From the IMG/VR virus record IMGVR_UViG_3300027872_000007, positions 1 to 54,595 of that record: a stretch of DNA of 54,595 nt. One strand, given 5' to 3'. This DNA is from a virus. Taxonomy: Duplodnaviria > Caudoviricetes. The notes beneath the pieces are model-generated. The model had not been told where the DNA came from. It did not search any database and saw only the letters and a list, made by a program, of their open reading frames with translations. A program made the position numbers and the translations under genes. Positions 31,805 through 48,438 of this stretch are shown here, one piece after another. Positions within the stretch are counted from its first letter, which is position 1. Every line of letters starts with the position of its first letter.

Positions 31805-34290
31805 TACTTTTTCCTCTTGCGCTGTTTGCTGGTGCTGCTTTTCGGTGCGCTCACTGGCCCCTTTCCGAACGTGGCTTGAGCATGAGCTTTCTTGTCCAGG
31901 CGGCGAACTTCGGCTCTCGATTCTTTGTCCTTGCGTTTTTGCTCGGCATCGGACTCCTTGTCGAGCCGCTTCTTCCCGGCATCGGATTCTTCGTCTTTCC
32001 GATCGATGCCAGCTTCTGTCTCAGCTCTACCACGCTCGATCTTGCCAATGGTCTCCAGGTCAGCCTCGTCTTCGAGGCGCTGTTGCTCGTCCTGCTCGGC
32101 CTGTTCTTCAGGCGTCTTCGCAGGCGGTGGCGGTGGTCGCAGCTTCTTGGCCACGGCCTGACTGATCAATTGCTCAAGCTCAGGTGGAAGGTCCTCGTTT
32201 TCACTTGGATCGTCCAGGTTAATGTATGGGAGTTGCGTACCCAGCTCGGCCTCGACTTGCTGCCGATACAGATACGCTTTGTGTTCCATGACGTGCGCCT
32301 GAATCACCGGCTCCAGGTTCGCTACCAGGTCCGGGTTCTCCGCGGCCTGGGTCTCTGCAAAATTCATGTGCACAGCGACGTGCGCTTGATGATCCTGAAG
32401 GGGATACACGGTCGCCGCGGCGCCGGTCATGAAGCCCATGTTCTCGCTCACTGGATCCAGCGGTGCATCGCTCTCCTCCGGCATGATCTGATCGACATCC
32501 GGAATACGAAGGGCTTCGAGCATGCGTCGATGCGCAATCTTTTTCTGCTTCTTCGGATACAGCTCTGGAGCCGCGGTGATCAGTTCCAGGATTGCCTGGT
32601 TCTGCGCGATGCGCTGCGTTGATGACCAGATGTTCGGATCCGATACCGGGATGATGTCCACGCGGCCATCGAAATCCTGTTTCAGGATCTTGCGCTCCTC
32701 GCCCTGGACCTCGTAGGGATACTCGTCCACGTCCATGAACTCGTAGTTCAGCGTGGCCATCATCTTGAACTCTTGCCGCGCCGAGACGTGCATGCGCTTG
32801 TGGATGCCGCTGAACACCTTCGAGCCCTGTTCTATGAGCGCCAGAGTCGTGCCAACGGGCCCGGTGTTCGAGGCATCACCGATCATGTTCTCAGTGGTGG
32901 TGGCAAAGCGCCGGCCTTCCTTGACCAACGTCTCAACAAGGGTAGCGAGAGCTGTCGATGGCTCTTTCACCGGCAGGTTGAAGAACGCCTTCTCCAACTC
33001 GTCGGCAGACATATCGACATCGATCCACTCGCCCGGAGTGAAACGTATCTCCCCGGCAACCTTGGCTTCCTTGGATTTGAATCCACCCTGTAGGTTTGCC
33101 ACCGAGGCACTATCAAGCAGGGCACGAATGCCACCACTGACTGCCTTCGCAAGTGAGCCAATTATGTGTAGAAGCCCAAAACCGTAAAAGCCAAGGCCGG
33201 GGAGATACTTGTAGTGGGTGAACCAGATGCGCTTCTTCATCAGCTCGTCGTCGTGCTTCCAGTTGCGACGAACTGCCAGGACCTCGCGAGACTCAGCCTC
33301 GACCGTGACGATGTACGGTGGCGCTATGTCGGAGTTTTCGTCCCATGGCATGTGGTAATCGATGTGGTATTCGAGGATCGTGTAGATCGTGTCATCGTAA
33401 TGTTGCTGCGGCGAACGATCGTCGGCCACGTCCTCCATGTCGTACCGGGAAAAGCTGGTGTTCTTATCGACGATGATCTGCGGTGTCGGCACTAACCGTG
33501 CATCCTCGATGAATGATCCCGCCTCCTGGGCCCGATAAACATCATTCTCCGGCATTTCGTACTTGTGACAATACCGCGGCGCGTTCGCAAGAGTTCGCGC
33601 ATGGTAGGGAACAATAAAGTCCTCTGCGGTCACAAAGCGTGATGTCGTCATGCCGGTGATCGGGTCGATGTAGACTTTCTTGAAAGCCGAACCTGATAAG
33701 GGAAGGTAGAAAAGCATCTGGTCCGTTGACCAGTAATACTCCTCATCGGCTTCCGTGAGCTGGTAGTTCATGTAGTCAGCGAGTCGCTCACCCTGCTCTA
33801 CCTTCTCGTCGGTCGCCTCGCCCATGATGTAAGGCTTTACCGGGCCCGAAGGCGGGAAGAACTCCTCAATCGCTCGCGCCTGGAACTGCGTGGTGGCTTC
33901 AGCGATGAGTGGATGCTGGACCGTGGCCGCACCCTTGAACGGTACATCGGATGCTGGCTCGTCCGTCAGGCCCATAAGCCTGAGTCCATCAGCCAGCCGG
34001 TTGAAGTGTTCTTCGCGAACCTGCTCATCGATCTCGTAGTACTCGATCAGCTCATCCGCGATGGCCATGCGTTCTTGAGCAGACAGTTCCTCGGCTAGAT
34101 TGTCGTTCCAACCGTCAGGCGATGCTTCGTCATGATCGATGTCCGCGTATTCAGCGATCTCACCTTTCGGAATCACTGAAATGGTTCCGTCATCGTTGTG
34201 GCGAATGACGTTCTTTTCAGTGTACTGCTCGGCCTCCTTGAAGGTCGGCATCGTCTTCATTGTCGAAAGCAGATCTGCTCTAGCTGCCAT
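31804..34290 (-). CDS. Portal protein
   Basis: PFKGAATVQHPLIAEATTQFQARA, YMNYQL, LPLSGSAFKKVY, GLGFYGFGLLH, PVGTTLALIEQG, DFDGRVDIIPVSDPN. Confidence 0.9.
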   Translation of the reverse strand: MAARADLLSTMKTMPTFKEAEQYTEKNVIRHNDDGTISVIPKGEIAEYADIDHDEASPDGWNDNLAEELSAQERMAIADELIEYYEIDEQVREEHFNRLADGLRLMGLTDEPASDVPFKGAATVQHPLIAEATTQFQARAIEEFFPPSGPVKPYIMGEATDEKVEQGERLADYMNYQLTEADEEYYWSTDQMLFYLPLSGSAFKKVYIDPITGMTTSRFVTAEDFIVPYHARTLANAPRYCHKYEMPENDVYRAQEAGSFIEDARLVPTPQIIVDKNTSFSRYDMEDVADDRSPQQHYDDTIYTILEYHIDYHMPWDENSDIAPPYIVTVEAESREVLAVRRNWKHDDELMKKRIWFTHYKYLPGLGFYGFGLLHIIGSLAKAVSGGIRALLDSASVANLQGGFKSKEAKVAGEIRFTPGEWIDVDMSADELEKAFFNLPVKEPSTALATLVETLVKEGRRFATTTENMIGDASNTGPVGTTLALIEQGSKVFSGIHKRMHVSARQEFKMMATLNYEFMDVDEYPYEVQGEERKILKQDFDGRVDIIPVSDPNIWSSTQRIAQNQAILELITAAPELYPKKQKKIAHRRMLEALRIPDVDQIMPEESDAPLDPVSENMGFMTGAAATVYPLQDHQAHVAVHMNFAETQAAENPDLVANLEPVIQAHVMEHKAYLYRQQVEAELGTQLPYINLDDPSENEDLPPELEQLISQAVAKKLRPPPPPAKTPEEQAEQDEQQRLEDEADLETIGKIERGRAETEAGIDRKDEESDAGKKRLDKESDAEQKRKDKESRAEVRRLDKKAHAQATFGKGPVSAPKSSTSKQRKRKK

Positions 34291-34350
34291 ACAACCTCCC
34301 ACGACCGACGATCGTCGGTAATGGTCTTCGTGGGCGGCGAAGATATTCGG

Positions 34351-36107: not shown

Positions 36108-36371
36108 TCAGTCTGGGTCGCCGTGGAAGTCTGCGAAGTATCGTTTGTTGAGCCAGCTATTGAACCATCGCTGCATCCACAGGATGTCGCGCTTCTCCAT
36201 GTCCGACCAAGCACAGTCGAGAGTGTAACTGTCGTCTTTCGCATCCCGCTTATTGGTGAGGATAATCACGTCATCAATCTCGCCACGCTCTGCTTGTTGA
36301 AGCGCATGGCGCAGCGTTCGCACGGCGTCATACTCACCGACTGGCAATTCTTTCACGTTGTCATGCGCCAT
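36108..36371 (-). CDS. Hypothetical protein
   Basis: MAHDNVKELP..TLRHALQQAERGEIDDVIIL; overlaps the TerL end. Confidence 0.6.
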   Translation of the reverse strand: MAHDNVKELPVGEYDAVRTLRHALQQAERGEIDDVIILTNKRDAKDDSYTLDCAWSDMEKRDILWMQRWFNSWLNKRYFADFHGDPD

Positions 36372-37953
36372 AGAACTTCCTTGGCTGGCTGAACAGCGCC
36401 AGCTCATCGTCCTTCTCATCGTCAGGTAAGTCGATCAAGCCCATGCGCCGGATATACGCGAGCAGCATCACCACGCAGTCCACCAGGTCGTCATTCTCAC
36501 CGACCGGGAACGTCGCGCACTGATTGATAACTTCGTAGGCCCAGTTCCTGGGGATGTACCACAGCCGGCCATCCTTCAAGATCTGCGCGACCATGTGAGC
36601 CCGGAACACTTTGTCCTTGGACCCAGGCTTCACTCCGCGTATCGAGAGCCCTGCTTTACGCAGCTCCTGAATCAACGAATGACCGCTGGCCTTCTTCTCG
36701 ATCAGCGTCCAGTCAGGATGCCACTCGACATTGTGTCCGATCGCTTCGGTCTTGAGATCTGGGAACTCCACTTTGTCGTTGAACCGCTCCAGCATCAGAG
36801 CATGAACAGCCATGTCCTGTTCTCGACCGCTCTCCGAATACTCGAACAGACCAGCAGTGATCCTCGCGGAGCAGTCGTTCTCCTCGTCGGTCTCGAAAGC
36901 CGTGTCGTACACGGAGATGACCTCAGTGAACTCCGGCATTGGCATTGGCTTGCCGGCGTACTGATGGTCCTGCGGATAGCACCACTGCTTCCACCACTTC
37001 TTCTTCAAGATCAGGCCACCACCGGACGTTGGATCTTGGTTCATCTGGGCAGAGTAGTCCCTGACTGACATGGCCTTGCGCTCAGCCTTGACCTCCTCCT
37101 GGCCAAAGCGTTGCTCGTTCAGCAATTCGCCCTTCTTCTCCCTTGGGTCCTCGAATATCGCACCTTCCTTGGTCTTATGTCCCTTGCCGGCATTGAAGAA
37201 CGTGATGCAGTGCCTGGCTGGATCGTATTCCATCGGCAGCATCAGCACTTCCCATCGCTCGTCCTCGGTCATGAGGATGTGGCCGAACAGGTCAGCATCG
37301 TGCGACCGCTGCCCGATCAGGACCTTCTGCCCAGTCGTCGGATCATTGAGTCGCGATCGCAGTGAGTTGTCCCAGGCTGACAGTGTGCTGTAACGAATCA
37401 GGTCGGAGTACACGTCCGACATATTGTGCGGGTCATCGATGATGATCTTATCGCCGCCTTCGCCAGTGACCTTGCCCAGGATCGAGCCTGAGATGCGATG
37501 ACCACCGTGATTGTTGACGTAGCGATTCTTGCGATTGTCCGATGGATCCAGGTAGAACGTGTCCGCGTACCGTTCTCGAAACCAGGCCGACTCGATCAGC
37601 CGGCGAGACTTGACTGCATCTCGGATGGCCAGCTCCTGAGCGTAAGAGGCGAACAGGAACTGCACTCCTGGATCCAGTAGCCACTCCCACACCGGCCACA
37701 ACACACTCGCGGTCAGACTCTTGGTCTGCCGCGGTGGGATATTGATCATCAAATTGCGAATGTCACCGAACGTGACATAGGCGAGGTGGTCACAGATAGC
37801 GTCCAGGTGCCAGTTGTTCTTGAACTGCTTCGGCTCTACGACCGGCCAGGCAACGGCAACGAACTCTCTCAGATCTCTCCGATAGAACTCGGCTTGGGCT
37901 TGCGTGAGTTGCTTGGATACCGCTTCTTGAACGCTGAGTGCATCCGCGACCAC
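36361..37953 (-). CDS. terL: Terminase large subunit
   Basis: Walker A INIPPRQTKS, Walker B IIIDDP, nuclease residues YDTA, IEKKASG and NDDLVD. Confidence 0.95.
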   Translation of the reverse strand: MVADALSVQEAVSKQLTQAQAEFYRRDLREFVAVAWPVVEPKQFKNNWHLDAICDHLAYVTFGDIRNLMINIPPRQTKSLTASVLWPVWEWLLDPGVQFLFASYAQELAIRDAVKSRRLIESAWFRERYADTFYLDPSDNRKNRYVNNHGGHRISGSILGKVTGEGGDKIIIDDPHNMSDVYSDLIRYSTLSAWDNSLRSRLNDPTTGQKVLIGQRSHDADLFGHILMTEDERWEVLMLPMEYDPARHCITFFNAGKGHKTKEGAIFEDPREKKGELLNEQRFGQEEVKAERKAMSVRDYSAQMNQDPTSGGGLILKKKWWKQWCYPQDHQYAGKPMPMPEFTEVISVYDTAFETDEENDCSARITAGLFEYSESGREQDMAVHALMLERFNDKVEFPDLKTEAIGHNVEWHPDWTLIEKKASGHSLIQELRKAGLSIRGVKPGSKDKVFRAHMVAQILKDGRLWYIPRNWAYEVINQCATFPVGENDDLVDCVVMLLAYIRRMGLIDLPDDEKDDELALFSQPRKFYGA

Positions 37954-37954
37954 C

Positions 37955-38125
37955 TCATTGACACTCCTTGCACTTGGCTCGCTTCACATGGGCCCTGGAC
38001 TCAGTTCGGAGCTGGCTATGCCCACATTCGAGATGCCGGATCCATATATCCGTTTCAGGGATACAGCCTCGTTGAGGTTTGAAGCTAACGTATTCGCATT
38101 TTTCGACCAGCATTAGAGACATCAT
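37955..38125 (-). CDS. Small Zn-binding protein
   Basis: LECGH..CKEC. Confidence 0.5.
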   Translation of the reverse strand: MMSLMLVEKCEYVSFKPQRGCIPETDIWIRHLECGHSQLRTESRAHVKRAKCKECQ

Positions 38126-38487
38126 AAATTCCCCGCTGATAATCCCTTGTAGCGGTGCAATAGAGTGTCCCAGCACCACCGTCTATTCAGGACCACCGCT
38201 ATCGCACCATTGTCCATCGCAGTGAAACGAGCAGTCTCGACGATAGGCTCACCCTGGTCGGTCTCTGTCGTGAAGCGCAGCATGTTGAACTTGCGCGGCC
38301 AGGTGTGGAAGACAATGCCCAGGTGGATCACTGGCTCCTTTGGGTTATCCCGCTGACGCAGGAACACCCAGGTATGCGGACGTAGTACGGGCGCATGCAG
38401 TACCTTGCCAAGCATAAGCGCCCGAATGTAAAGCACCGTCTCCGACAGCTTCGGGCGTTGTTGAGGACTGTTTGATTCGTTGGCCAT
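38122..38487 (-). CDS. Hypothetical protein
   Basis: Translationally coupled at both ends. Confidence 0.55.
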   Translation of the reverse strand: MANESNSPQQRPKLSETVLYIRALMLGKVLHAPVLRPHTWVFLRQRDNPKEPVIHLGIVFHTWPRKFNMLRFTTETDQGEPIVETARFTAMDNGAIAVVLNRRWCWDTLLHRYKGLSAGNL

Positions 38488-38714
38488 CACATATCGTGCT
38501 TGTTGCGGTGGTGGGCTGGCCTGTCCGGGCAACCAGTAACATGCGGGTTGCCGGCCTTCTTGCCGTGCGGGTTACCTTTCTTGTGCGACTTCTTCTCGAT
38601 GCCGGCCTCGCTCATAGCAATCGCTACTGCTTGCTTTTGTGGTCTACCTGAGTGGACCAGCTCGCTGATGTTCCCGCTCACGACCTCTTTGCTGCTGCCT
38701 TGCTTGAGTGGCAT
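38487..38714 (-). CDS. Small basic protein common near terminases
   Basis: [38 protein letters not shown]. Confidence 0.7.
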
Positions 38715-38752
38715 GTCATCCTCCAGGGCGGCCACGGCATTCTAACCTGTTT

Positions 38753-38995
38753 CTAACCTAAAGGTGGCGGTATGATCCGTTCGTACTTCACCAGGGCCTG
38801 AGCGTAATGATCAAAGTCATTCGGCAGGTTGATGTCGTTCGGGCCAATCTCCCGGTGAATGTTGCGCTCGTAAGCAAGACAGATGCCACCCAGCGGCTGC
38901 CAACCTTGCTCCATGTGCAAGACGACCTCATCAACCAAGAAGTCAGAATTACAGGCCACGATCACGGTGTAGTCGATGATCTTCCTCTCGTCCAT
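38753..38995 (-). CDS. DUF1737-like protein
   Basis: Y..I....LVDEV...MEQGWQPLGG..YAQALVK. Confidence 0.7.
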   Translation of the reverse strand: MDERKIIDYTVIVACNSDFLVDEVVLHMEQGWQPLGGICLAYERNIHREIGPNDINLPNDFDHYAQALVKYERIIPPPLG

Positions 38996-39300
38996 CAGCC
39001 CATCGCCCATACATAGATTTTGCTTCGACCAAACTGGTGAAGAAACCATCCATCCAGCCAGATGGGCCATGGCGACTTTCCTGCATCTGGTCCATCGAAG
39101 GCTTTCCATATCCTCCCATAGAGTGCAGGAGGAGTTAAAATGTAGTATTCATCATGCCGCGGTGGGCTCGTTGAAACATGCAAGTCAAAAGTTTTCTCTA
39201 CGTTGAAATACTTTCTCGTGTACTCGGCACAAACTCTCTTACCGTCAGCCGTCCAGTAGTCGCCGTCCCTCAGCTTAAACTCCAATACTTTCTTCGTCAC
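38995..39300 (-). CDS. Hypothetical protein
   Basis: GTG start overlapping the upstream stop. Confidence 0.55.
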   Translation of the reverse strand: MTKKVLEFKLRDGDYWTADGKRVCAEYTRKYFNVEKTFDLHVSTSPPRHDEYYILTPPALYGRIWKAFDGPDAGKSPWPIWLDGWFLHQFGRSKIYVWAMG

Positions 39301-39710
39301 GATTTTCTCCCCTCCCTGTCCTCGTCTGTGTCCAGTAGCTTTAGATAGGCGCGTGAGTAATCGCCTTTCATATGCCCTTCATGGATGGCGCTCGACTCCC
39401 TGCCCTCTTTGGCCTGCAACAGACGAAGCTCAAATATAAAGTCTCGCCATCTTTCGTGTTCTGGTCCCATAATCGGCTTTGATTTTCTGAAATTCTCAGG
39501 GCGCAGGAACTCCAACACCACATAGTCGTCGTTAGCATCGTTCTCTGGATCGAAATCCAGCGTAACTGACATATCGCCTCTTGGAGAAATCCAAACACCA
39601 TCTGAACCAAACAGTCCAGCAGGTACGCCTCGTAGCGTCATAGCATCTGGATCGTCTACAAATTCATAGCCTACCGCTTCAGCTAATCGCCTTATGTCCC
39701 TATCGTTCAT
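39297..39710 (-). CDS. Hypothetical protein
   Basis: Start MNDRDIRRLAEAVG at an ATGA overlap. Confidence 0.55.
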   Translation of the reverse strand: MNDRDIRRLAEAVGYEFVDDPDAMTLRGVPAGLFGSDGVWISPRGDMSVTLDFDPENDANDDYVVLEFLRPENFRKSKPIMGPEHERWRDFIFELRLLQAKEGRESSAIHEGHMKGDYSRAYLKLLDTDEDREGRKS

Positions 39711-39946
39711 AGTGTGGTGTCCTTGACCTCCACTCGAATGGTCTGGCCGTCGATCATCAGCAAGTCCAGCAGGTAATCGATCGAGCAACGGTCTTTGCCA
39801 TTGACGATCTCGTTGATCGTGGACTGCGGCACTCCCCACTGCCTGGCTGCTTCCGATTGGCTGGCATGCAGCTCAATCCGGCCACGTACCGCGGTAAGCA
39901 GGCTCTCTTTCATTTCCTCCGGTGTCGATGCAACGAAGTGAATCAT
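39707..39946 (-). CDS. XRE-family HTH protein
   Basis: SQSEAARQWGVPQSTINEIVNGK..SIDYL. Confidence 0.75.
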   Translation of the reverse strand: MIHFVASTPEEMKESLLTAVRGRIELHASQSEAARQWGVPQSTINEIVNGKDRCSIDYLLDLLMIDGQTIRVEVKDTTL

Positions 39947-40251
39947 TTCTGCTCCTGTTGTCGTGCATCAGTGGATTTTTGTCGTGTTTGCCATTCCAAG
40001 TCGCCAAATAGCTCATCCATTTCGATTTCTCTCACGCCGTCTCGCTCTCCGATTGGCGTGAATCTATAAACCGAATAGTGTGCTGGAACATATCGGCGCG
40101 GATTAAAACCAGACACCCAGCATGTATGCCCAGCGACCTTGAACACAACCAGCCCGGCTTTGTCGCTGATAGCAGCTAGTGTCGTCTTTCCGGTATCGAC
40201 GCCAACCCTTTCAACGCGACCATCTGCATATATTAGGGCTCGAAATCTCAT
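39943..40251 (-). CDS. Hypothetical protein
   Basis: Coupled ORF within the operon. Confidence 0.55.
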   Translation of the reverse strand: MRFRALIYADGRVERVGVDTGKTTLAAISDKAGLVVFKVAGHTCWVSGFNPRRYVPAHYSVYRFTPIGERDGVREIEMDELFGDLEWQTRQKSTDARQQEQK

Positions 40252-40345
40252 GACTGCCCCTACCCGTAGTGGTCAGCGTCCAATAGCAGCATGACTAGCA
40301 TCCCGCACCCAAAACCAAGCATAAATAATTGAAGCCCCATCTCCA

Positions 40346-40525
40346 TCACTGATTTGCTGGATCCGATGCCCAGGCCGGATACTCTGTCTTCACTGGCTGC
40401 TCGATCGCTACGGTGCCATTGCAATACGGATACATCGTGCAGCCCCAGAACTCCTCTCCGGTCGCTTTGTTCTTGCGAACTACCATCTCGTCGCCGCACT
40501 CAGGGCATTCGGGTTCACTGTCCAT
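40346..40525 (-). CDS. Topoisomerase-type C4 zinc-ribbon protein
   Basis: CPECGDEMVVRKNKATGEEFWGCTMYPYC. Confidence 0.8.
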   Translation of the reverse strand: MDSEPECPECGDEMVVRKNKATGEEFWGCTMYPYCNGTVAIEQPVKTEYPAWASDPANQ

Positions 40526-40823
40526 CTTCGATACGATCCAGCCGTTCAATCTCAGCAACGATCAGCGCCCCGGCCTTTACGAGATTTCGTCGATCCGTTG
40601 TCGGCTTCCACCATCCACGCGCCCACGGCCATGACAGTGGAATACCAGTTGCTACATGGTGAATAGATGCCTTCGCAGAACGTAGCGCATAGCACCCACT
40701 AGCCAATGCAAGTTCGCCGCCCTCGTGTTTGTCGTCATGGTTAAGCGTCCAACCTTCCTCCTCGACTTGCCGGTAACGCTCGCGCCCAATCTCATCGAGT
40801 ACCGATTCAGTTTGCTTGTTCAC
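40515..40823 (-). CDS. Conserved phage protein
   Basis: ER.RQ..EEGWT..HDD.H..GELA..WPW..WWKP..RRNLVKAGALIVAEIERLDR. Confidence 0.75.
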   Translation of the reverse strand: MNKQTESVLDEIGRERYRQVEEEGWTLNHDDKHEGGELALASGCYALRSAKASIHHVATGIPLSWPWARGWWKPTTDRRNLVKAGALIVAEIERLDRIEDGQ

Positions 40824-40824
40824 T

Positions 40825-41115
40825 TCAGTCTCCTCCGATAAACATGCCGGCGTTGCAAGCCATCATGCACGAGTGGCAAAGCACGATGTCCTTGGTATCG
40901 ACCTCTTTCGCGATCACCGGATCTGGCCCAAGGATTTGAGCAAGCGGCGCTGCTTCGCCCATGCTCATTTCCAGGCCATGCTGTCTTTGGATTGCTTTAG
41001 CATCGAGGCCCATCGTGTCCATGCGAAACACATAGAAGATCGGAATGTTCTCGTGCGCGACACCCTTATCACAGGCGCTGCACTTCTTCAGATCGCGTTG
41101 CTTCATATCAGGCAT
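40825..41115 (-). CDS. Zn-finger hypothetical protein
   Basis: CSAC..LCHSC. Confidence 0.6.
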   Translation of the reverse strand: MPDMKQRDLKKCSACDKGVAHENIPIFYVFRMDTMGLDAKAIQRQHGLEMSMGEAAPLAQILGPDPVIAKEVDTKDIVLCHSCMMACNAGMFIGGD

Positions 41116-41807
41116 CAGATGTCATCCTGATCGAGCCACCAGGCGATGAAGAACGTCACGGCTTTTTCCATGCGAACTGGATCCAGTATCCGGCCACACA
41201 CGATCGGATCAGACCTATTGAGCCGGCGTCCCATTGCAGTGCCAACCTGGTCGAACAGCTTTCGATCTAGCGCCAGTTGCGTCTCCTTAATGACGTATGG
41301 CTTGATGATGTTGACCGGGAATGTGATCTCCTCGTCAAATGATGTGGGCCAATAAGTGTCCTGTTCCTCTCCATTGCTTTTTATTTTTGTGCCGTAACCA
41401 CCGCTTACTGGAACAGGATCAACATACCTTCCTTTGCCTGCTGGAAGGACCTGGCCGGTTTGTTCAAATGCCTCCCACTTGTAAGTGCTGATCGTTTTTC
41501 TCGGCTTACGTTGGCCGGTGCGTACTGCGAATAAGTCAAGATCGAAGTTTGGCACGATCATGTAACCCAGTTTGATCGCCCTACCAATCTTCAGGTAATA
41601 CTCGATGCGCCGTTCGCATCGACGCACATGCGCCTTGAACGGCTTCGAGTTGAAGTGCCCTCTCCGTGCTTGATTATAGTTTGCGTCGGCCTCACGCTTT
41701 TGCATGAGCAGGCGCCTGATGTTCTCTGCGCACCACGATCTAACTGTCTTCTGTGCAACAGCCAGCTCGCTCGGTGTGTACGCGACTACTTGGGTAGTGG
41801 TCATCAT
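41115..41807 (-). CDS. Hypothetical protein (230 aa)
   Basis: AGGAGG SD, coupled; ends DPIVCGRI..VTFFIAWWLD. Confidence 0.7.
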   Translation of the reverse strand: MMTTTQVVAYTPSELAVAQKTVRSWCAENIRRLLMQKREADANYNQARRGHFNSKPFKAHVRRCERRIEYYLKIGRAIKLGYMIVPNFDLDLFAVRTGQRKPRKTISTYKWEAFEQTGQVLPAGKGRYVDPVPVSGGYGTKIKSNGEEQDTYWPTSFDEEITFPVNIIKPYVIKETQLALDRKLFDQVGTAMGRRLNRSDPIVCGRILDPVRMEKAVTFFIAWWLDQDDI

Positions 41808-42166
41808 GATCCTCCTGTTGGTGCATCTGAAATTGGCAGCCAGTGAGTGGGCTCAGGTAGGTCCTCGGCAAAGACTGAAGTTCTCCACGAGTGTTCGGCA
41901 AGCCAGGCAACACGGAAACAATCAACCAACTCCCTCACTTTCATGTTGCACGTCCAAACGATCGTGCCCTGCTCTGGTAGCTCATCTGCTACCGCGATCC
42001 ACTGACCACGAACGACCCAGGCATTTGCAAATGCCAGATGGAGCCTGTTTTCCAAGAATGGATGCCCTGCACTGTCGGGCTTTGTCAGTGTGTCCACATT
42101 TGCGCAGCCGATTCCCTCCAGCGACTTGATCCATTTGTTCCACGCTTTACTGTACGGTGTCTCCAT
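41804..42166 (-). CDS. DUF551-like protein
   Basis: WIAVADELPE...PTHWLPISDAP. Confidence 0.7.
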   Translation of the reverse strand: METPYSKAWNKWIKSLEGIGCANVDTLTKPDSAGHPFLENRLHLAFANAWVVRGQWIAVADELPEQGTIVWTCNMKVRELVDCFRVAWLAEHSWRTSVFAEDLPEPTHWLPISDAPTGGS

Positions 42167-42308
42167 CGTGCTTCTCCCTTCCTTCCCAGGTGAGCCAGAT
42201 CCAATAAATGCTCCCGCACCTGGGGCAACAATTGTGTTGTCGATATTCTCCTGGCCTATCGTACCATTGATATAGGCATCTCGTACACTGCATGAGGCCC
42301 GGTCTCAT
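42147..42308 (-). CDS. Small zinc-ribbon protein (53 aa, not in ORF track)
   Basis: MRPGLMQCTRCLYQW..CCPRCGSIYW. Confidence 0.5.
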   Translation of the reverse strand: MRPGLMQCTRCLYQWYDRPGEYRQHNCCPRCGSIYWIWLTWEGREKHDGDTVQ

Positions 42309-42373
42309 GAGGCCATGTTACTCCTGGGCGCTACTCCAGGATCTCCACCTCCTCGCGCTTCCATCTGACCTCA

Positions 42374-42574
42374 TCATATGGCTGGACCGATGTGTTCGAG
42401 TTTTTCGACCACTACAGGCGCAGCCCACATTTCATCTTTCTTGAATTGTTGGGTCGCTTTTTCGATGGCCACCACCGCATTTGGAGCAACAACATTGTAC
42501 AGTCGATGGACTCTATTCAACCGCGACACATTGCCGGCCTGAGTCAATGTCATGCTAAATACTCGTTTCATCAT
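42374..42574 (-). CDS. Hypothetical protein
   Basis: ATGA-coupled ORF. Confidence 0.55.
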   Translation of the reverse strand: MMKRVFSMTLTQAGNVSRLNRVHRLYNVVAPNAVVAIEKATQQFKKDEMWAAPVVVEKLEHIGPAI

Positions 42575-42801
42575 GCTTCCTCGATGTAGGTCACACGACG
42601 CAGGCCGATCTTGCGAAGAATCGCGTCACCTGGATTAACTCTGTCACCAACTCGCAACGAGTTCAGGTAGTGCGGATCCAGCCCCAAACGTATTGCCGCT
42701 TGCCGGCAATTGCCAAACTTTTTGACCAGGGCCTTTACCGTTCGGCGTATCAGGGCCTGTTCCACTTTCGTTGGTTGCTTAAAATTACTTGCGTATCTCA
42801 T
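42571..42801 (-). CDS. HTH DNA-binding protein
   Basis: GGGAG SD; NCRQAAIRLGLDPHYLNSLRVG..NPGDAILRKIGL. Confidence 0.7.
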   Translation of the reverse strand: MRYASNFKQPTKVEQALIRRTVKALVKKFGNCRQAAIRLGLDPHYLNSLRVGDRVNPGDAILRKIGLRRVTYIEEA

Positions 42802-42817
42802 GGTCGTTCTCCCTTTC

Positions 42818-43291
42818 TTAAACGCCTGGATTCCAATAAGTGTTGCGATTGTCTCCTGGCAATAGATCATCGACAGTCCATTCACTGTCGTCGAAGGTTT
42901 CGTCCTTGCTCAGTATCAAGCCGAACTCTCGCGCCAAATCCGCGAGCTTTTGCTGACCATAGAACTTTTCGTCATCAGGTCCGATGGTCAATCGTCTGGG
43001 TATGTTACCTACATCCAGGATAGCCTTGGTGGCGTCCTGAAGTGCCGCCTCGCAGATGTCTGCCGGCGTATTCGGCTCGATGATATTGCCGATACCGGGT
43101 TTAGCCGTCTTCATCTCCACACCAAATTCTGCTAGTTGGCCATCGATCTGCTTAGTGAACATATTCATCGCTCCAGCAAAAAACGATTTCCAAGCACAGT
43201 CGTTGATTTTTTCAGCTACACGCTTCAGGCGATTGAATCCGCCAACTACATTTTGTCGGGCAATTAAGACATCGACATCAAGTTTGCTCAC
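42818..43291 (-). CDS. Protein with an MCP-derived C-terminal half
   Basis: Probable GTG start (GTGA overlap). PADICEAALQDA ~ MCP AADLAEASLEQA; FDDSEWTV ~ LTDPDQWTL; YWNPGV ~ YGSPGGA. Confidence 0.6.
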   Translation of the reverse strand: MSKLDVDVLIARQNVVGGFNRLKRVAEKINDCAWKSFFAGAMNMFTKQIDGQLAEFGVEMKTAKPGIGNIIEPNTPADICEAALQDATKAILDVGNIPRRLTIGPDDEKFYGQQKLADLAREFGLILSKDETFDDSEWTVDDLLPGDNRNTYWNPGV

Positions 43292-43386
43292 AGCCTTTTC
43301 CTTGTGATCCACGCCATCACTGCATAGCCAACAATAATTCCCAGCAGCAACGCAATTATGCTCACGCACAAGGTCGGCATGATCAT
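43288..43386 (-). CDS. 32-aa transmembrane peptide (not in ORF track)
   Basis: MIMPTLCVSIIALLLGIIVGYAVMAWITRKRL; coupled at both ends. Confidence 0.55.
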   Translation of the reverse strand: MIMPTLCVSIIALLLGIIVGYAVMAWITRKRL

Positions 43387-43571
43387 GGCATCTTCCGATA
43401 GCAGTATCTGGCAATCTGATTGATGATGTTGTCACGACCGAGAAGTGTTGCTGGCCGATTCTTTGGCTTCGTTAGCTCGTAGATGTCATCGATGATCTTC
43501 CTGGTGGCTTTCAGCTCGACACGAAGCTCACCCTCGGACATCTTGTCCACGTTTTTAGTGAAAGTGATCAC
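43383..43571 (-). CDS. Hypothetical protein
   Basis: AAGGAGG SD and a GTGA overlap. Confidence 0.6.
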   Translation of the reverse strand: MITFTKNVDKMSEGELRVELKATRKIIDDIYELTKPKNRPATLLGRDNIINQIARYCYRKMP

Positions 43572-43846
43572 GGCGCCTCCTTGAGAATATCGAGATCCAT
43601 AACGTGAGTCAGCATCTCAATGTCTTCCTTGCGGCAATAGATGACCTGATTGCCCTTGTCAAGGTACAGCTTGCCCGGATCCAATATGCCAACAGTACGC
43701 CAAGCCCTCAAATGCAGGCGTCTTAGAAAATCGTACCATTTGGGTGTGATTCTTACTTTGGGCTTCACCGGCACCAATCTGTAACCGGCGAACATATTCT
43801 TCGTCATCGTCTCTGTCCCTTTAGCTCCAGTCCTATTCTCAATCAT
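43568..43846 (-). CDS. Hypothetical protein
   Basis: Coupled ORF; start could be 43807. Confidence 0.5.
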   Translation of the reverse strand: MIENRTGAKGTETMTKNMFAGYRLVPVKPKVRITPKWYDFLRRLHLRAWRTVGILDPGKLYLDKGNQVIYCRKEDIEMLTHVMDLDILKEAP

Positions 43847-44153
43847 CGATGTCGATCCACAACTCCTCCATATTGTCTGGCTCCAGCTCCTCGTACACGT
43901 CACCGAAGGCTTTGTTCAGGCCCTCCTTCAACGCCTTTGGGAACTCAGCCCTAAGCCCTGGATCATACGGAATGCTCGCACCCTCCGGCTTGGCCTGTAC
44001 CAGGCTGAAGCCTCCGGTCAGGTCATGGTGCGCGGCATCGTGTAGCAGAGTTGGATGCTTCATGCTTCTCAGCATCACGCCATCGTCGTTTTTCGGAACC
44101 ACCGCCATCGCAGCAGCGCCAATGAAAGCCTGAATGAATCCGCGTCTGTTCAT
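43839..44153 (-). CDS. Twin-arginine-signal protein made of permuted MCP fragments
   Basis: MNRRGFIQ; DGVMLRSMKHP; GGFSLVQAKPEGASIPYD; RAEFPKALKEGLNKAFGDVY. Confidence 0.75.
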   Translation of the reverse strand: MNRRGFIQAFIGAAAMAVVPKNDDGVMLRSMKHPTLLHDAAHHDLTGGFSLVQAKPEGASIPYDPGLRAEFPKALKEGLNKAFGDVYEELEPDNMEELWIDIDD

Positions 44154-44356
44154 GCCGGCGTTCCATACATGGCTCGGTAATCGATCCACTGAACGTCCAG
44201 GCTGGAATCCATGTTGACCTTAAACTTCATCGCAACGATGTTGGGATCAGCCAATGGACTGAGATCCAGCCTTGGCATCGCAGTCGCCATTCGCATGCCG
44301 ATCGCTACCGTTGCTACTGCGCCGACAAACGCCTTGAGAAATGCTCGTCTTTTCAT
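44150..44356 (-). CDS. Twin-arginine-signal peptide ending in an MCP C-terminus mimic
   Basis: MKRRAFLK..MKFKV..WIDYRAMYGTPA. Confidence 0.7.
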   Translation of the reverse strand: MKRRAFLKAFVGAVATVAIGMRMATAMPRLDLSPLADPNIVAMKFKVNMDSSLDVQWIDYRAMYGTPA

Positions 44357-44577
44357 AGACTCAAAAGCCAAAAACCAAATGCAGCAATGGGAGCCATAAT
44401 GAGAAGCGTTCCAACAAACTGGGCGCCCCAATCTGTTTCCATTGGAGGTGAAGCATATCGAGGCTCATGAACAACTGTGTCTCCATACACGCTACGCCAA
44501 TCACTCCAATGACTGACGAAGAAGACGGCGTTTAAGCCTTCTTGCAACTGTTTGCGCGAGAAGTTCTCTTTGCTCAT
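44353..44577 (-). CDS. Membrane-anchored fusion of the MCP N- and C-terminal peptides
   Basis: RKQLQEGLNAVF + WSDWRSVYG + C-terminal TM helix. Confidence 0.8.
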   Translation of the reverse strand: MSKENFSRKQLQEGLNAVFFVSHWSDWRSVYGDTVVHEPRYASPPMETDWGAQFVGTLLIMAPIAAFGFWLLSL

Positions 44578-44738
44578 TGCTTTCTTCTCATATCACCGCG
44601 GCCCAATGCCTCCGAGTTCTTCATCTGGAGTCTGTGGCTTTCCCGTTTCGCTTCATTGAACGTGCCGTGGAATTTCGATTCGCCGGTCTCCAGCTCCTCA
44701 ATGAGACGACCACGGCGCTCCCACTTCTGTTCAAGCAT
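44574..44738 (-). CDS. Small charged protein (54 aa, not in ORF track)
   Basis: MLEQKWERRGRLIEELETG...; AAGGAG upstream and an ATGA overlap downstream. Confidence 0.5.
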   Translation of the reverse strand: MLEQKWERRGRLIEELETGESKFHGTFNEAKRESHRLQMKNSEALGRGDMRRKQ

Positions 44739-45231
44739 GCTGGAACATGGCTCCTTTCGACATATAAATCACTGGCATAGCAATCGTATCGTCCATCTCC
44801 TGCATGCCCATTAAAGCACCATGCTCCATTTTATTGATCGACAAAGCCCCCTGACTAATGCTGATGATCTGCGCTGCTTCCAGCTCATCGAAGAACTCAT
44901 CGTTCATGCCGAACTCCTCGATTACTTGATGAGCGACATATCGAGCCCCACGCTCAACATTTCTGAATGCCTGCGTAGCTTTCCGAAGAAGGTCTTTGGG
45001 ATTGATAGGCGTCCATGGATCTGAGTCGAAAATGGCAGCTCTCTCGAAGATCTGAACGTTCCAGGGCTCAGCAGTATCGATGCCATAGTAGTATTTATCG
45101 GTAGCCATCTCGTAACGCCAGGTGCCATCAGCAAGCACCTCCGGAAACTTTGGAGCCATACGAGAGGCAATAGCAACCGTCGCCACGGCTGCCGCCAATC
45201 CATGAAAGAACGCTCTCCTGGTAAGTCGCAC
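44731..45231 (-). CDS. Twin-arginine-signal protein with MCP-like fragments
   Basis: GTG start with SD; LTRRAFFH; GTWRYEMATDKYYYG; ARYVAHQVIEEFGMNDE. Confidence 0.65.
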   Translation of the reverse strand: MRLTRRAFFHGLAAAVATVAIASRMAPKFPEVLADGTWRYEMATDKYYYGIDTAEPWNVQIFERAAIFDSDPWTPINPKDLLRKATQAFRNVERGARYVAHQVIEEFGMNDEFFDELEAAQIISISQGALSINKMEHGALMGMQEMDDTIAMPVIYMSKGAMFQHA

Positions 45232-45235
45232 TGTC

Positions 45236-45586
45236 CTACTCCTCTTTTTCCTCCACTTTAACGCCCTCGGCTCTTTGGATTGCCTTCTCAACGTCCGCAG
45301 GGCGCTCTTGCAGAATCTGAGCTGGCGTTCCACCTCCGGGCTGCCGAACCGTTTCGTAATCCGGTTTCGGTTTAGGCGCTTCGGTCTTTCGATCGCGACG
45401 ACGCTTGGCGGTTTCTTCCTGGCCGCGCTCTCGGTGTTCCTCGATGAGCTTTTTACGCTCAGCGTCTGATGCTTTGGTTTCCAGTTTTCGCTTGCGCGCC
45501 TTCTCGCGATCAGTATCTGGTGCCGGCGTACTCATTGGTGGGCCGAATGATCGTGGTCGTTCCTCTTTGTTCGCTCTACTGGCCAT
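45236..45586 (-). CDS. Charged low-complexity protein
   Basis: Operon-contiguous ORF. Confidence 0.6.
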   Translation of the reverse strand: MASRANKEERPRSFGPPMSTPAPDTDREKARKRKLETKASDAERKKLIEEHRERGQEETAKRRRDRKTEAPKPKPDYETVRQPGGGTPAQILQERPADVEKAIQRAEGVKVEEKEE

Positions 45587-45588
45587 TG

Positions 45589-45822
45589 CTAAATCCCCGC
45601 TTTTCGTTCCTGCTCGTCAAGATACTTCTGACGTTCAGTTACCGGCTTGGGTGCTTTGGTCTTCCGATCTTCCGGCTTCGTCGCTTCAGGCGCTTCTGGC
45701 TTTTCGTCGCCGTACTGTTCCTTGTACCGCTTGCGCCTGGCCTCACGCTTCTTGGCCACTTTACACGAGATAGAATCCGGATCTTCGCGACAAATCTCTT
45801 TTGCTGATCGGCTGGTCGGCAT
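45589..45822 (-). CDS. Charged small protein
   Basis: Operon-contiguous ORF. Confidence 0.55.
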   Translation of the reverse strand: MPTSRSAKEICREDPDSISCKVAKKREARRKRYKEQYGDEKPEAPEATKPEDRKTKAPKPVTERQKYLDEQERKAGI

Positions 45823-45825
45823 AAC

Positions 45826-46152
45826 TCACCCTTCGGTAGTCGATGGCGGCGACTCATCCTCGTCAGGATGCTCAACAGTGTACGTGAAAGGATCCAGCAT
45901 CGGTATCTTCTCCATGAAAATATCGTCCTCGCTGACATCCTCCCAATCTGCCTCCTGGCTCTCCATGATGATTTGGATCCGATGGTTCGACTGATCCTCA
46001 TCCGATTGCACGACCTTGACAATCTCGATGTCCTGCGGACAGTTGGTTGACACGTAGTCGTTTTCCTTCGCGGTAAGAATCGCTTTCAAAATATCGATAC
46101 TAAGTTCAACTCTAGCCAGCTTCGTCATCTGGATCTCCAGGATCTGGGTCAC
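45826..46152 (-). CDS. Acidic hypothetical protein
   Basis: Operon-contiguous ORF; start uncertain. Confidence 0.55.
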   Translation of the reverse strand: MTQILEIQMTKLARVELSIDILKAILTAKENDYVSTNCPQDIEIVKVVQSDEDQSNHRIQIIMESQEADWEDVSEDDIFMEKIPMLDPFTYTVEHPDEDESPPSTTEG

Positions 46153-46465
46153 GAGACTCTAATGCCATTAGCGTTACATCGGCAAGTTTCCCGAACTCAA
46201 AGTCGTTGCAGCAAATACTGGCCGCAACCATCGACGAGTGCGAACCTGTTGGATGAATCACAACCAAACACATTGCAGACACAGTACCTTTCTCGATTCC
46301 TTTCAGGGCGTTTTGCAGTTGCCGCATAGCATCACGTTTCGCCTGAACAGGAAAGTAGCCATCCACCTTGGGCTCTGGCTTGTTCTTGTCGAGTTCCCTC
46401 TCCATGCGCTTAATTTCCAGGCTCGCTACACCATCTTTATCAGGCAGTATGATTCTACTACGCAC
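46112..46465 (-). CDS. Hypothetical protein
   Basis: LQNALKGIEKGTVSAMCLVV, weakly similar to 36108-36371; start uncertain. Confidence 0.5.
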   Translation of the reverse strand: MRSRIILPDKDGVASLEIKRMERELDKNKPEPKVDGYFPVQAKRDAMRQLQNALKGIEKGTVSAMCLVVIHPTGSHSSMVAASICCNDFEFGKLADVTLMALESRDPDPGDPDDEAG

Positions 46466-46832
46466 TTTCTTTCGACTCCTCGGTTGGCTTATCCAGCCCA
46501 TGGACAATCGACGGTGGCGGCGTCGGCTTCGGAAGGCCAGCACGTTGCGCTGACTTCTCAGCGCGTCCTTGCTTCTCGGCTTCGCGATCCTCGGCAAACT
46601 TCACATCTCTAGTTGTGACCTTTCGCTCGATGGTTTCCGCGTCATAACCAATCGCATCGGCAAATTCTTTCATCGTCGATGCCTCAAATTCTGGTTTCAT
46701 CGCCATAACCTTTTCCATCATGGCGTTTCGCTGCTTACGTTCATCATCGTTGGCCGGCACCCCCCGATAGGTCATGCCGAACACAATGTTCACCGACAGT
46801 TCCACGTCGCCGCAATCGATTTTAAGTGACAT
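46458..46832 (-). CDS. Hypothetical protein
   Basis: GGGAGAG SD before MSLKIDCG. Confidence 0.6.
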   Translation of the reverse strand: MSLKIDCGDVELSVNIVFGMTYRGVPANDDERKQRNAMMEKVMAMKPEFEASTMKEFADAIGYDAETIERKVTTRDVKFAEDREAEKQGRAEKSAQRAGLPKPTPPPSIVHGLDKPTEESKESA

Positions 46833-46876
46833 GATCAGGCTCTCCCAGTAATTTGTAATCGCTGTCCCGAAGCATC

Positions 46877-47134
46877 TTATAATACATCCTTTAAGGCTCG
46901 ACACTTCGCTTCGTGTGCCTGCCGGCATTCGTTCTTGATGTGCTGTTCGCAACCAGGACACATCTCACATTTCTTACACGATCCCTGCTTCGCGAACGGC
47001 GTAGTCAGATAGCAAGTGCAAACATCGGGAAAGTTTTCCTCGACTCGTTTGCGGCGCCACGCTATCCATCGATCATGCGCTTCCTTCGGCGTCGGGCGTC
47101 TTGTGGAAACCGCAGAACCCGCAGAACTTTTCAT
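46877..47134 (-). CDS. Cys-rich hypothetical protein
   Basis: CTC..CKKCEMCPGC..H..C; start uncertain. Confidence 0.45.
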   Translation of the reverse strand: MKSSAGSAVSTRRPTPKEAHDRWIAWRRKRVEENFPDVCTCYLTTPFAKQGSCKKCEMCPGCEQHIKNECRQAHEAKCRALKDVL

Positions 47135-47273
47135 CGATGTCCTTCCTGCTATACGAGCGACGACTACATTTTAGACAAACAATGCATGTGCCATCGTCAC
47201 TGACGAGATAAGTCAGATCCGACTTGTTTGGCCAGCCGACGAGTTTCTTCGCTGACTCTATGAAACGCTGCAT
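47073..47273 (-). CDS. Zn-finger protein
   Basis: IVCLKC..SY..DI..KFCGFCGFH. Confidence 0.55.
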   Translation of the reverse strand: MQRFIESAKKLVGWPNKSDLTYLVSDDGTCIVCLKCSRRSYSRKDIDEKFCGFCGFHKTPDAEGSA

Positions 47274-47592
47274 TACAGTTGCCACGAGCAATAACCTCCG
47301 ATAGACCTCGCGCCAATCCCAACAGCCAGTGATCGGTAACCACCAGCAGAAAGATCTGGGCAAGGATGTTGATGTCCGCGCCGGCTTTCAGCCAATGAGA
47401 CTTCGGCCTAAACTGCGCCAGCGTGAAGTCGTCCATGCGGAATGAATAAAACGAAAGCAGGAACAGCCCGTAGACGATCCAGTGCACCAGATCGTTCTGA
47501 GCCTCAGTGCCGAACGGCGTTCCCGATGTGTAAATGAGCCAGGTAAACCAGGTCGAAAATGCGACCGCCAACCATTGTGACATCTTGCTCAT
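47197..47592 (-). CDS. Multi-pass membrane protein
   Basis: About three hydrophobic segments. Confidence 0.6.
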   Translation of the reverse strand: MSKMSQWLAVAFSTWFTWLIYTSGTPFGTEAQNDLVHWIVYGLFLLSFYSFRMDDFTLAQFRPKSHWLKAGADINILAQIFLLVVTDHWLLGLARGLSEVIARGNCNAAFHRVSEETRRLAKQVGSDLSRQ

Positions 47593-47598
47593 GGCTGC

Positions 47599-47703
47599 CT
47601 ATACGTGTCCGCCCTGAAAGCCGGTAATTGCCGGCAATATAACAAAGAAAACCAGCAACGCCAGAAACACGATGATAGCCACAACAATTTTGAGTGTTTT
47701 CAC
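47599..47703 (-). CDS. 34-aa membrane peptide (not in ORF track)
   Basis: GTG start after the GGAGG SD; MKTLKIVVAIIVFLALLVFFVILPAITGFQGGHV. Confidence 0.6.
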   Translation of the reverse strand: MKTLKIVVAIIVFLALLVFFVILPAITGFQGGHV

Positions 47704-47705
47704 GA

Positions 47706-47752
47706 CTGTACCCTCCTATATAGATACTACGATAACAGAACAGCGATCTCAA
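47706..47752 (-). promoter_or_regulatory. Sigma70-like promoter plus GGGTACAG leader heading the small-ORF operon
   Basis: TTGAGA-17-TAGTAT-10nt-GGGTACAG. Confidence 0.6.
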
Positions 47753-48438
47753 GTGATCTCGTGAGATTCGCCTTCAATTGCCCTGGCCCTGGCTGCCTTC
47801 TTCTGGATCGCCTCCAGCGTCTGTATGACAGCTTCCAGCTCATCCTGTGGCATAGAGCTGAAGTCCAGCGACCGAGCCTGGCTCTGGCGCATGTTCAGAT
47901 CCAGCATCAGCTTCTCGGAGAACATCCCCAGGTGGCGACCCAGATTGACCAAGGCGCTGTGTTTGTCATGCAAAACGTACCTGTAATCCAGCTCCTTGCC
48001 GTCCTCGGTCTCGATCTCCTCGGTCGTCCAGGAGTCCACAGCGAGGGCCTGCGGATTGGTCAGCTCGTTCACTGGCCTGCCGATCAGGCGTATGCCACCG
48101 TTCACCTTCACGACTCGAACATAGTCCTTGACATTCTGAAAGCCGATCGCTGCCATCTCATGCAAGATCCTGGTCGTCGTCACATCGTACTGGGCCGCGG
48201 CCACTTCATTCTTCTTCTCTTGAAGAAACGCCAGGAACGGACGCAGATTGGCCGCCAACTTGTGGGATTTTATCTTCGATGTGGTTTTGGAGTACCCGGC
48301 ATCGATCATTGCTGGATACGGCTTCATTGCGTGTTGGACCACGTTTATCGCGAAGTCCAGTTGCAATTTAGTTCGTGGCCAGCCTCTGGTGTTGCGTGGT
48401 TCTACCTGGATCACTTCTGCTGGGGCGCTCACACACAT
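47749..48438 (-). CDS. terS: Terminase small subunit
   Basis: AMIDAGYS HTH, VTTTRILHEMAAIGF, LHDKHSALVNLGRHLGMF. Confidence 0.85.
   Translation of the reverse strand: MCVSAPAEVIQVEPRNTRGWPRTKLQLDFAINVVQHAMKPYPAMIDAGYSKTTSKIKSHKLAANLRPFLAFLQEKKNEVAAAQYDVTTTRILHEMAAIGFQNVKDYVRVVKVNGGIRLIGRPVNELTNPQALAVDSWTTEEIETEDGKELDYRYVLHDKHSALVNLGRHLGMFSEKLMLDLNMRQSQARSLDFSSMPQDELEAVIQTLEAIQKKAARARAIEGESHEIT

Follow-up and report, generated by a model that had tools for sequence, protein, structure and literature searches.

P0001 is an open reading frame (ORF) of 104 residues on a 54.6-kb viral record recovered from seawater metagenomes (IMGVR_UViG_3300027872_000007; the whole stretch of 54,595 nucleotides is called the window here). 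We find that it is very probably a real gene descended from the major capsid protein (MCP), and that it belongs to a sizeable, undescribed family of at least 97 small, MCP-derived, leader-bearing proteins. Behind a leader of the twin-arginine translocation (Tat) type, P0001 carries three short blocks that resemble parts of the MCP encoded in the same window, in an order that is not that of the MCP. The best explanation of the whole, to which we give a probability of about 0.4, is that P0001 would be a leader-targeted mosaic made by duplication and shuffling of MCP segments and acting as a competitor or decoy. The positions of all features are collected in Table 1.

The three MCP motif pairs listed in permuted order by the initial annotation of this DNA are all found in P0001. 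BLASTP of P0001 against the MCP gives three non-collinear alignments, of residues 45–95 with MCP 49–98 (E = 7e-6), residues 68–99 with MCP 5–35 (E = 5e-5) and residues 24–61 with MCP 138–175 (E = 0.011). The order along P0001 is MCP 138–148, then 49–70, then 5–38, and this permutation excludes, as had been claimed, a simple internal deletion of an MCP copy. Each segment was also compared with the MCP against 1000 shuffles of itself. None of the shuffles reached the score of residues 45–67 with MCP 49–70 (z = 7.9) or of residues 68–104 with MCP 5–38 (z = 8.6); the weakest block, residues 21–44 with MCP 138–148, was equalled by 8 of 1000 (z = 3.3). The segments thus lie beyond the shuffled distribution that the initial annotation had named as the test, the DGV block by the least. 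The leader (residues 1–20) is not MCP-like, 354 of 1000 shuffles reaching its score, and an origin of the leader in the MCP N-terminus (MNRSDF against MNRRDF) finds no support on this count.

The same blocks are found by a hidden Markov model (HMM) of the MCP family built independently from 148 diverse MCP homologues (Z = 1), which aligns them to HMM positions 138–151 (E = 9e-3), 51–69 (3e-4) and 6–30 (4e-6). In a comparison of the 61 small ORFs of the island around P0001 with the window's 26 large proteins, the MCP received the best real matches (P0004, 2e-5; P0001, 1e-4 and 0.002), against a best of 0.007 in a five-fold shuffled set. A six-frame scan of the window with the MCP HMM (1049 stretches) placed its five best matches after the MCP itself all in P0001 and its neighbours P0003 and P0004, with independent E-values (i-E) of 0.006–1.1; the best shuffled frame gave 3.9.

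P0001 has no collinear, near full-length match to the MCP profile, only the three short non-collinear stretches, and its mature part has no family match in Pfam, PHROG or NCBIfam. No autonomous HK97 fold is predicted: AlphaFold2 (AF2), given 22 sequences, returns two helices only, with a predicted local distance difference test score (pLDDT) of 53.4 and a predicted template-modelling score (pTM) of 0.17, and the ESM Atlas model has the same pTM of 0.17. On these models the product appears to be a chain of linear motifs and not a folded domain. A search of the ESM Atlas gave nothing at ≥0.9, Tat substrates appearing only as weak leads, and tblastn of P0001 against 50,697 phage records gave no match at E ≤ 1. 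Predictions of a complex of the MCP with P0001 residues 21–104 (alignments of 148 and 22 rows) gave an interface score (ipSAE) of 0.00 twice; they were run without controls and are used neither way.

Table 1 Positions of P0001, its segments and the other genes discussed (window coordinates, except for loci given by an L number)
Feature	Position	Strand	Details
P0001, gene studied	43839..44153	-	ATG 44153, stop 43839-43841 (TGA), 104 residues; Tat-like leader and mosaic of MCP blocks
P0001 residues 1-20, MNRRGFIQAFIGAAAMAVVP	44094..44153	-	Twin-arginine-type leader; TAT_signal E 0.022, sub-threshold; predicted helix 4-17
P0001 residues 24-34, DGVMLRSMKHP	44052..44084	-	Resembles MCP 138-148 (BLASTP, shuffles, MCP HMM)
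P0001 residues 36-44, LLHDAAHHD	44022..44048	-	Conserved His-rich block without MCP counterpart; common to spine-type P0340 and P0356
P0001 residues 47-66, GGFSLVQAKPEGASIPYDPG	43956..44015	-	Resembles MCP 51-70, putative E-loop (BLASTP, shuffles, HMM)
P0001 residues 68-92, RAEFPKALKEGLNKAFGDVYEELEP	43878..43952	-	Resembles MCP 5-29, putative N-arm helix (BLASTP, shuffles, HMM); predicted helix 73-89
P0003	44150..44356	-	68 residues; Tat-like leader MKRRAFLKAF..ATA; C-terminal WIDYRAMYGTPA resembles MCP 290-300
P0004	44353..44577	-	74 residues; MCP N-arm block joined to MCP C-terminal WSDWRxxYG, then C-terminal hydrophobic anchor
P0005	44731..45231	-	166 residues from GTG 45231, GAGGAG 7 nucleotides upstream; third Tat-like leader of the operon; TIGR01409 E 0.22
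26-nucleotide exact direct repeat	44521..44546 (in P0004) and 28041-28066 (5' region of MCP gene)	-	blastn E 1e-8
Spine-type leader genes ending exactly at, or 36 nucleotides before, the terL start	L003 7787-8116, L004 9866-10462, L005 7268-7567, L006 5499-5771, L008 5668-6264
terS	47749-48438	
terL	36361-37953	
Portal	31804-34302	
GroES-like gene	30440-30889	-	PHROG 3188 at 1.3e-6; Pfam Cpn10 sub-threshold
MCP	27189-28100	-	303 residues, HK97-type

The leader of P0001 starts M-N-R-R-G-F-I-Q (MNRRGFIQAF...) and so has the twin arginine of a Tat signal. In the family the RR pair lies within the first 20 residues in 92 of 97 members, the other five being N-terminally truncated gene calls, and RRx[FVL][ILVM] fits 88 of 97. 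The usual pattern is RR at 3–4, then F and I/L, an uncharged run of about 14 residues rich in Ala and Gly and, in most cases, a Pro at the end, which is the likeness to Tat signal peptides (PF10518, TIGR01409); the uncharged stretch has the length (median 14 residues, range 12–24) and hydropathy (mean Kyte–Doolittle 1.5) of a signal-peptide h-region. The only Pfam match of P0001 is TAT_signal, at residues 1–20 with 15.1 bits, and across the family Tat profiles are the only or top Pfam matches at residues 1–20. Of 11 proteins tested, eight have TAT_signal there (E = 2.7e-4 to 0.14) and five have TIGR01409; a precomputed PF10518 match exists on two family members. Of the twin-arginine leader proposed in the initial annotation, then, the RR motif and the top profile match stand, and the score falls short of the gathering score of 22.7. 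The DGV-block HMM alignment extends into leader residues 13–17 in 36 of 97 proteins, which is too short to call. We describe the P0001 leader as Tat-like and sub-threshold, claim no family membership for it and regard export as a prediction; it is nevertheless probable that the family leaders confer membrane or Tat targeting.

Homologues of P0001 form 26 protein clusters at 46–73% identity (27 proteins with P0001 itself) and occur at nine viral loci. A second, spine type, in which the leader is followed by a P-domain strand and spine helix (e.g. L003 7787–8116), accounts for 70 clusters. With the MCP HMM (Z = 1), each of the 97 related small proteins gives a match at i-E < 1e-3 and none of 485 shuffled sequences does. 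The vocabulary of blocks, which we name by taking them to follow the canonical HK97 order, consists of N-arm, E-loop, P-domain strand, spine helix, the DGV..HP strand (presumably the strand after the spine helix), helix 160–187 (presumably an A-domain helix) and C-terminal strand. Two or more blocks are present in 59 of the 97 proteins, and in 49 of these 59 their order is permuted relative to the MCP. Among the architectures, the DGV block followed by spine (30 proteins) and spine without other blocks (29) are the commonest, ahead of E-loop followed by N-arm (11) or by spine (9); the leader, DGVxLxSxxHP, LLHDAAHHD, GFGLAxxKxEG..YD and the spine-helix block recur in varied orders. The core of the A-domain, MCP 188–278, has no significant match in the small ORFs of the window or of nine related loci.

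In these ten stretches (791 frames) the MCP HMM finds 33 real matches at i-E < 1 against one shuffled match, and nine of the ten hold one to four MCP-like small ORFs. Three loci (L003, L005, L006) each contain a triad of an E-loop type, a strand/spine type and a C-terminal-strand type. One paralogue type (L005 7274–7567) has a sub-threshold Pfam match to Phage_capsid_4 (E = 0.0015). A scan of genome contigs with the spine-type alignment found 17 loci, all of them full-length MCPs in contigs of metagenome-assembled genomes and none a small leader gene; these MCPs have open frames of 298–318 residues, with one 612-residue frame open at the contig end. Many spine-type proteins share a conserved C-terminal tail ...SGEGARRSVGVEGSPDRI. 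An inserted Cys/His-rich block, CSFCHGLNGDHFTWCNDVNPLK, is seen in P0321–P0323 and P0365, and LLHDAAHHD in many members; it is possible that the Cys/His-rich and LLHDAAHHD blocks are metal-binding modules, which would suit the Tat export of cofactor-loaded cargo.

The ratio of non-synonymous to synonymous substitution rates (dN/dS) among seven P0001-type coding sequences is 0.19–0.54 (18 of 21 pairs with computable dS), compared with 0.03–0.06 for the MCPs of the same phages, and on this basis the family members are real, fast-evolving genes and not debris. The family invariants fall in the leader and in those blocks that resemble the MCP. Residues invariant among the close MCPs are G52, A56, K59, E61 and G62, and L12, E14, G15, L16, N17, F20 and G21; those of the P0001 family that match MCP invariants are G48, K55, E57, G58, D64, L75, L79 and F83, and the E-loop block is the sole MCP block invariant in the P0001 family. 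Gene content also changes quickly: a phage with a 96% identical MCP has instead a protein made of leader, LLHDAAHHD, E-loop, spine helix and strand, a pace of change typical of genes engaged in conflict.

The blocks do not track the MCP of their own phage. Ranked by likeness among 148 MCPs, the cognate MCP came 8th, 16th, 35th, 21st and 77th in the five cases, and one spine block is identical at 19 of 26 positions to a distant MCP (46% overall), against 12 of 26 to the MCP of the window, which does not belong to the phage of that block. The blocks, two leader types and the non-MCP block LLHDAAHHD are shared across the family. Some joins carry the signature of circular permutation, HMM 129/130–156 being followed by 104–134 and, in P0362, 145–180 by 103–151, and in P0022 an E-loop block is inserted within an otherwise collinear 136–180 stretch.

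P0001 is the last of a string of genes, P0005, a 54-residue ORF, P0004, P0003 and P0001. The stops of the 54-residue ORF, P0004 and P0003 each lie in an ATGA overlap with the next start, the TGA of P0004 overlapping the ATG of P0003 and that of P0003 the ATG of P0001, and from these overlaps the string from P0005 to P0001 is predicted to be translationally coupled. None of 1000 shuffles reached the score of the C-terminal WIDYRAMYGTPA of P0003 with the MCP C-terminus; the P0003 leader is more canonical than that of P0001, and the P0003 homologue in L039 retains YDWRAVYGTPSG; L039 also keeps the gene order of P0003 type, then E-loop type. P0004 opens with 12 of 12 MCP N-arm residues and passes directly to WSDWRxxYG (z = 12.9 and 7.4 for its MCP-like blocks in the shuffle test). 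The exact repeat of 26 nucleotides which it shares with the MCP gene sits about 30 nucleotides past each start codon, within a wider match of 33/36 nucleotides, and is the only repeat of MCP DNA in the window above noise. It may be the mark of recent recombination or a common RNA-level element. The repeat is exact though the MCP genes of relatives differ at dS > 1, and this stretch of P0004 is probably MCP DNA that was captured recently. A search of viral contigs found no relatives of P0004.

The cargo of P0005 has no detectable likeness to the MCP. Its homologues at L002 1889–2494 and L007 3684–4268 represent a conserved protein of 166–200 residues with a second leader type (..ATVAI..RMAPKFPEVLADG..); P0350, P0352, P0354 and P0366 carry MCP strand/spine blocks behind this leader type. 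A further ORF of the minus strand, 46458–46961, was considered as MCP-derived on a pairwise match to MCP 16–97 (E = 8e-4) and rejected, as the MCP HMM gives no support (i-E = 22); together with L007 1895–2197 it forms one conserved ORF type of 100–167 residues.

The record is estimated to be 78% complete. Window DNA is found in three DNA datasets (seawater and marine sediment metagenomes), one of which may be the sample of origin, and no RNA dataset is listed among the sequencing runs. Nearly all genes lie on the minus strand, from about 49 kb to base 1. The MCP matches PHROG 371 major head protein (E = 3.5e-17) and Pfam Mu-like_gpT (3.5e-6), and its closest cultured relatives are those of Roseobacter phage CRP-901 and pelagiphage HTVC023P at ~55–57% identity. 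Pfam and PHROG scans place an SU10-type adaptor, tail genes and a giant ORF farther downstream of the MCP. The giant ORF (3–6674, minus strand, >2224 residues) runs past the window end, and its residues 922–1066 match an InPase domain (PF18823, E = 4e-40); its product is probably a packaged or ejected virion protein. The window is best explained as a marine podophage in which P0001 is an accessory gene. Between terS and terL (36361–48438) lie ~10 kb of small ORFs without family matches, and this interval is a hypervariable accessory island. In related loci the island also encodes FN3-like proteins with a Sec signal, along with a gene judged by eye to be similar to PAPS reductase (L004 7344–8153 and 8621–9178, and L002 2669–3259, as listed jointly). 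Pfam and PHROG scans of 61 ORFs revealed neither a reverse transcriptase nor any other machinery for capture.

The blocks can be placed on the HK97 fold only approximately. AF2 predicts the MCP poorly (pLDDT 51.8), with helices at 5–26 and 100–116; Foldseek of this model against the PDB has HK97-fold proteins only as its top matches, all at E ≥ 0.044, and searches of the PDB with the MCP sequence and profile gave nothing useful. On this mapping the sources of the blocks would be the peripheral HK97 elements that make inter-subunit contacts. We can then picture P0001 acting as follows. The leader would bring the chain to or across the inner membrane. The ~85 residues behind it, without an autonomous fold and carrying the MCP-descended strand after the spine helix, E-loop and N-arm helix, would mimic conserved linear contact motifs of the MCP and compete with the genuine MCP for a partner that recognises them. 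Candidates for this partner are capsid or virion components of a relative that co-infects or superinfects, and host factors that sense the capsid protein. A role in conflict, either exclusion of relatives or a decoy for capsid sensing, is suggested by the fast turnover, the multiple paralogues and the location in the island, and the data are compatible with selection on linear MCP motifs. Taken by itself, a mimic or competitor function is a tentative proposal.

Several observations weigh against this proposal. Its main weakness is that an export leader and a cytoplasmic target are hard to reconcile, the periplasm being an odd place for a mimic of an assembly protein, and P0004, if tail-anchored, would face the cytoplasm. 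None of the 11 leaders tested reaches the Tat cut-offs (best 21.2 against 22.7 bits, and 15.9 against 16.7 bits for TIGR01409). Judged by eye, P0003 has A-T-A before M-P as an AxA site, and P0001, with just A-M-A within the hydrophobic stretch and then VVP, has no clear cleavage site. The failure of the blocks to track the cognate MCP argues against a decoy for the phage's own capsid, though it suits the targeting of other phages. No structure underlies the labels N-arm, E-loop and spine helix, which were assigned from a poor model and the canonical HK97 order. The matched blocks are no more conserved than the remaining MCP (2.19 against 2.16 bits), on which ground we also rejected the idea that they are simply its most conserved parts. 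Finally, the functional layer as a whole is inferred only, from sequence.

An alternative function, which we consider unlikely, is that of a morphogenetic accessory factor, the blocks docking on the phage's own MCP by strand or helix mimicry so as to help the lattice nucleate, to chaperone it or to cap it (at the portal vertex or the membrane, for instance), and the leader or anchor serving as a tether on the cytoplasmic face. The genes do lie within the late, co-oriented packaging and head operon, and in five of nine related loci the stop of the spine-type gene directly abuts the start of terL, which fits a morphogenetic role equally well. The origin of the blocks in peripheral inter-subunit elements and never in the A-domain core, and a cytoplasm-facing P0004 type, would suit it too, as would the GroES-like co-chaperonin that the head module encodes between portal and MCP. 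Against this, gene content differs among phages whose MCPs are 85–96% identical, which would be unusual for an essential assembly factor, and dN/dS exceeds the MCP value 5–10-fold. Export is suggested by the canonical RRxF[LI]K leaders, and no family member occurs among the 50,697 phage records.

As to the origin of P0001, the initial annotation had proposed independent, repeated capture of MCP fragments, selected as an epitope string. The permutation is genuine, no fold is predicted for the product and a recent capture of MCP DNA lies next door in P0004, so that capture as such is upheld for the neighbour; for P0001 itself, shuffling among paralogues fits better. There is no DNA-level similarity between P0001 and the MCP gene by blastn, from which we take its blocks to be old. 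The blocks are common to 96 other proteins and are closer to each other and to the family consensus than to the cognate MCP, and the joins resemble circular permutations of duplicated stretches. An epitope string in the immunological sense finds no support, and we know of no antibody-like recognition system in these hosts. We therefore regard repeated capture into P0001 as quite improbable. The non-tracking of the cognate MCP, the shared blocks and the permutation-like joins favour instead a few duplications followed by recombination between paralogues. Most likely, on the sequence relationships, a few partial MCP duplications became fused to a leader and then recombined among the two to four paralogues per genome, with horizontal movement; P0004 suggests that an occasional fresh capture from the MCP gene does occur.

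It is highly improbable that these ORFs are non-functional debris, that is, decaying remnants of MCP duplications or recombination scars which stay open by chance. They are small, lie in a hypervariable island and have neither a known family nor a predicted fold, and P0004 lacks relatives. Yet the ORFs are intact, with homologues in 26 protein clusters and at nine viral loci, dN/dS is below 1 in all 18 pairs with computable dS, conservation is centred on the leader and the MCP-like blocks, the starts are apparently coupled, and the order of the P0003-type and E-loop-type pair is kept in L039. Chance resemblance in a short ORF, for which one could cite the shortness of the blocks (11–30 residues) and the marginal DGV block taken alone, is already refuted by the shuffle controls on the other two (z about 8), and the MCP as the top match among 26 large proteins, the agreement of the HMM scans with their shuffled controls and the family-wide conservation of the blocks leave it a vanishingly small probability.

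A more elaborate form of the competitor or decoy reading, which on sequence grounds we hold to be decidedly unlikely, considers the family members jointly. The two to four leader-bearing or anchored proteins of each phage (E-loop/N-arm, strand-plus-spine and C-terminal-strand types) together hold all HK97 P-domain elements and the extensions without the A-domain, and might come together in the cytoplasm as a split, miniature capsid-periphery module that is exported by Tat to the envelope and there captures capsid-binding parts of superinfecting relatives or draws off a capsid-sensing defence. Tat moves folded complexes, and such a module would resolve the clash between export leader and cytoplasmic target. 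If true, this reading would add to the known conflict systems a new class that derives from the capsid and diversifies by block shuffling.

The family can be set beside several known systems. With HK97-fold MCPs (PF25209 Phage_capsid_4/PF10124 Mu-like_gpT; PHROG 371) P0001 shares three local blocks that keep MCP-invariant residues; unlike them, it is a third of the length, with blocks reordered, no A-domain, no predicted fold and an export-type leader, and it evolves 5–10 times faster at non-synonymous sites. Unlike bacterial Tat substrates, it is phage-encoded and below the profile cut-offs, and its predicted exported cargo is a small, probably unfolded chain and not a cofactor-bearing enzyme. 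Phage satellites make capsid-redirecting proteins (Ccm of PICIs, CpmB of SaPIs, Sid of P4) which are folded, cytoplasmic and satellite-encoded, Ccm being an MCP homologue. The likeness to these is conceptual only, in that a protein of a mobile element resembles or docks on an HK97 capsid protein to alter assembly; here the phage itself would encode leader-bearing, unfolded mosaics, with no PHROG or Pfam relation. The T4 Gol peptide with the abortive-infection protease Lit, and capsid sensing by CapRel, show that short linear stretches of MCP can trigger host defence. They support the premise of a decoy; Gol, however, is part of the MCP itself, and the P0001 family consists of separate genes. 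Exaptation of the whole HK97 fold is known from encapsulins, gene transfer agents and satellite capsid homologues, and to our knowledge there is no precedent for short linear HK97 blocks recombined behind a secretion leader. Small proteins with an N-terminal export or anchor segment that act from the periplasm on the entry of phages or on lysis include the T4 antiholin RI. Another is the HXS effector HxsA of bacteria (PMC13128918). Neither RI nor HxsA is known to be capsid-derived or related in sequence to the P0001 family. In the literature, covered mainly by titles and abstracts, we found no earlier description of such proteins.

If members of the family are capsid mimics in conflicts between phages or between phage and host, they would be a prokaryotic parallel to the capsid-derived restriction factors of animals, and would offer a direct handle on the capsid motifs that are recognised during infection. 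With its parent gene present in the same genome, the family also provides a natural experiment in how proteins evolve by circular permutation and the shuffling of blocks. Should the function turn out to be mundane, an origin will still have been assigned to at least 97 ORFan proteins of abundant marine podophages.

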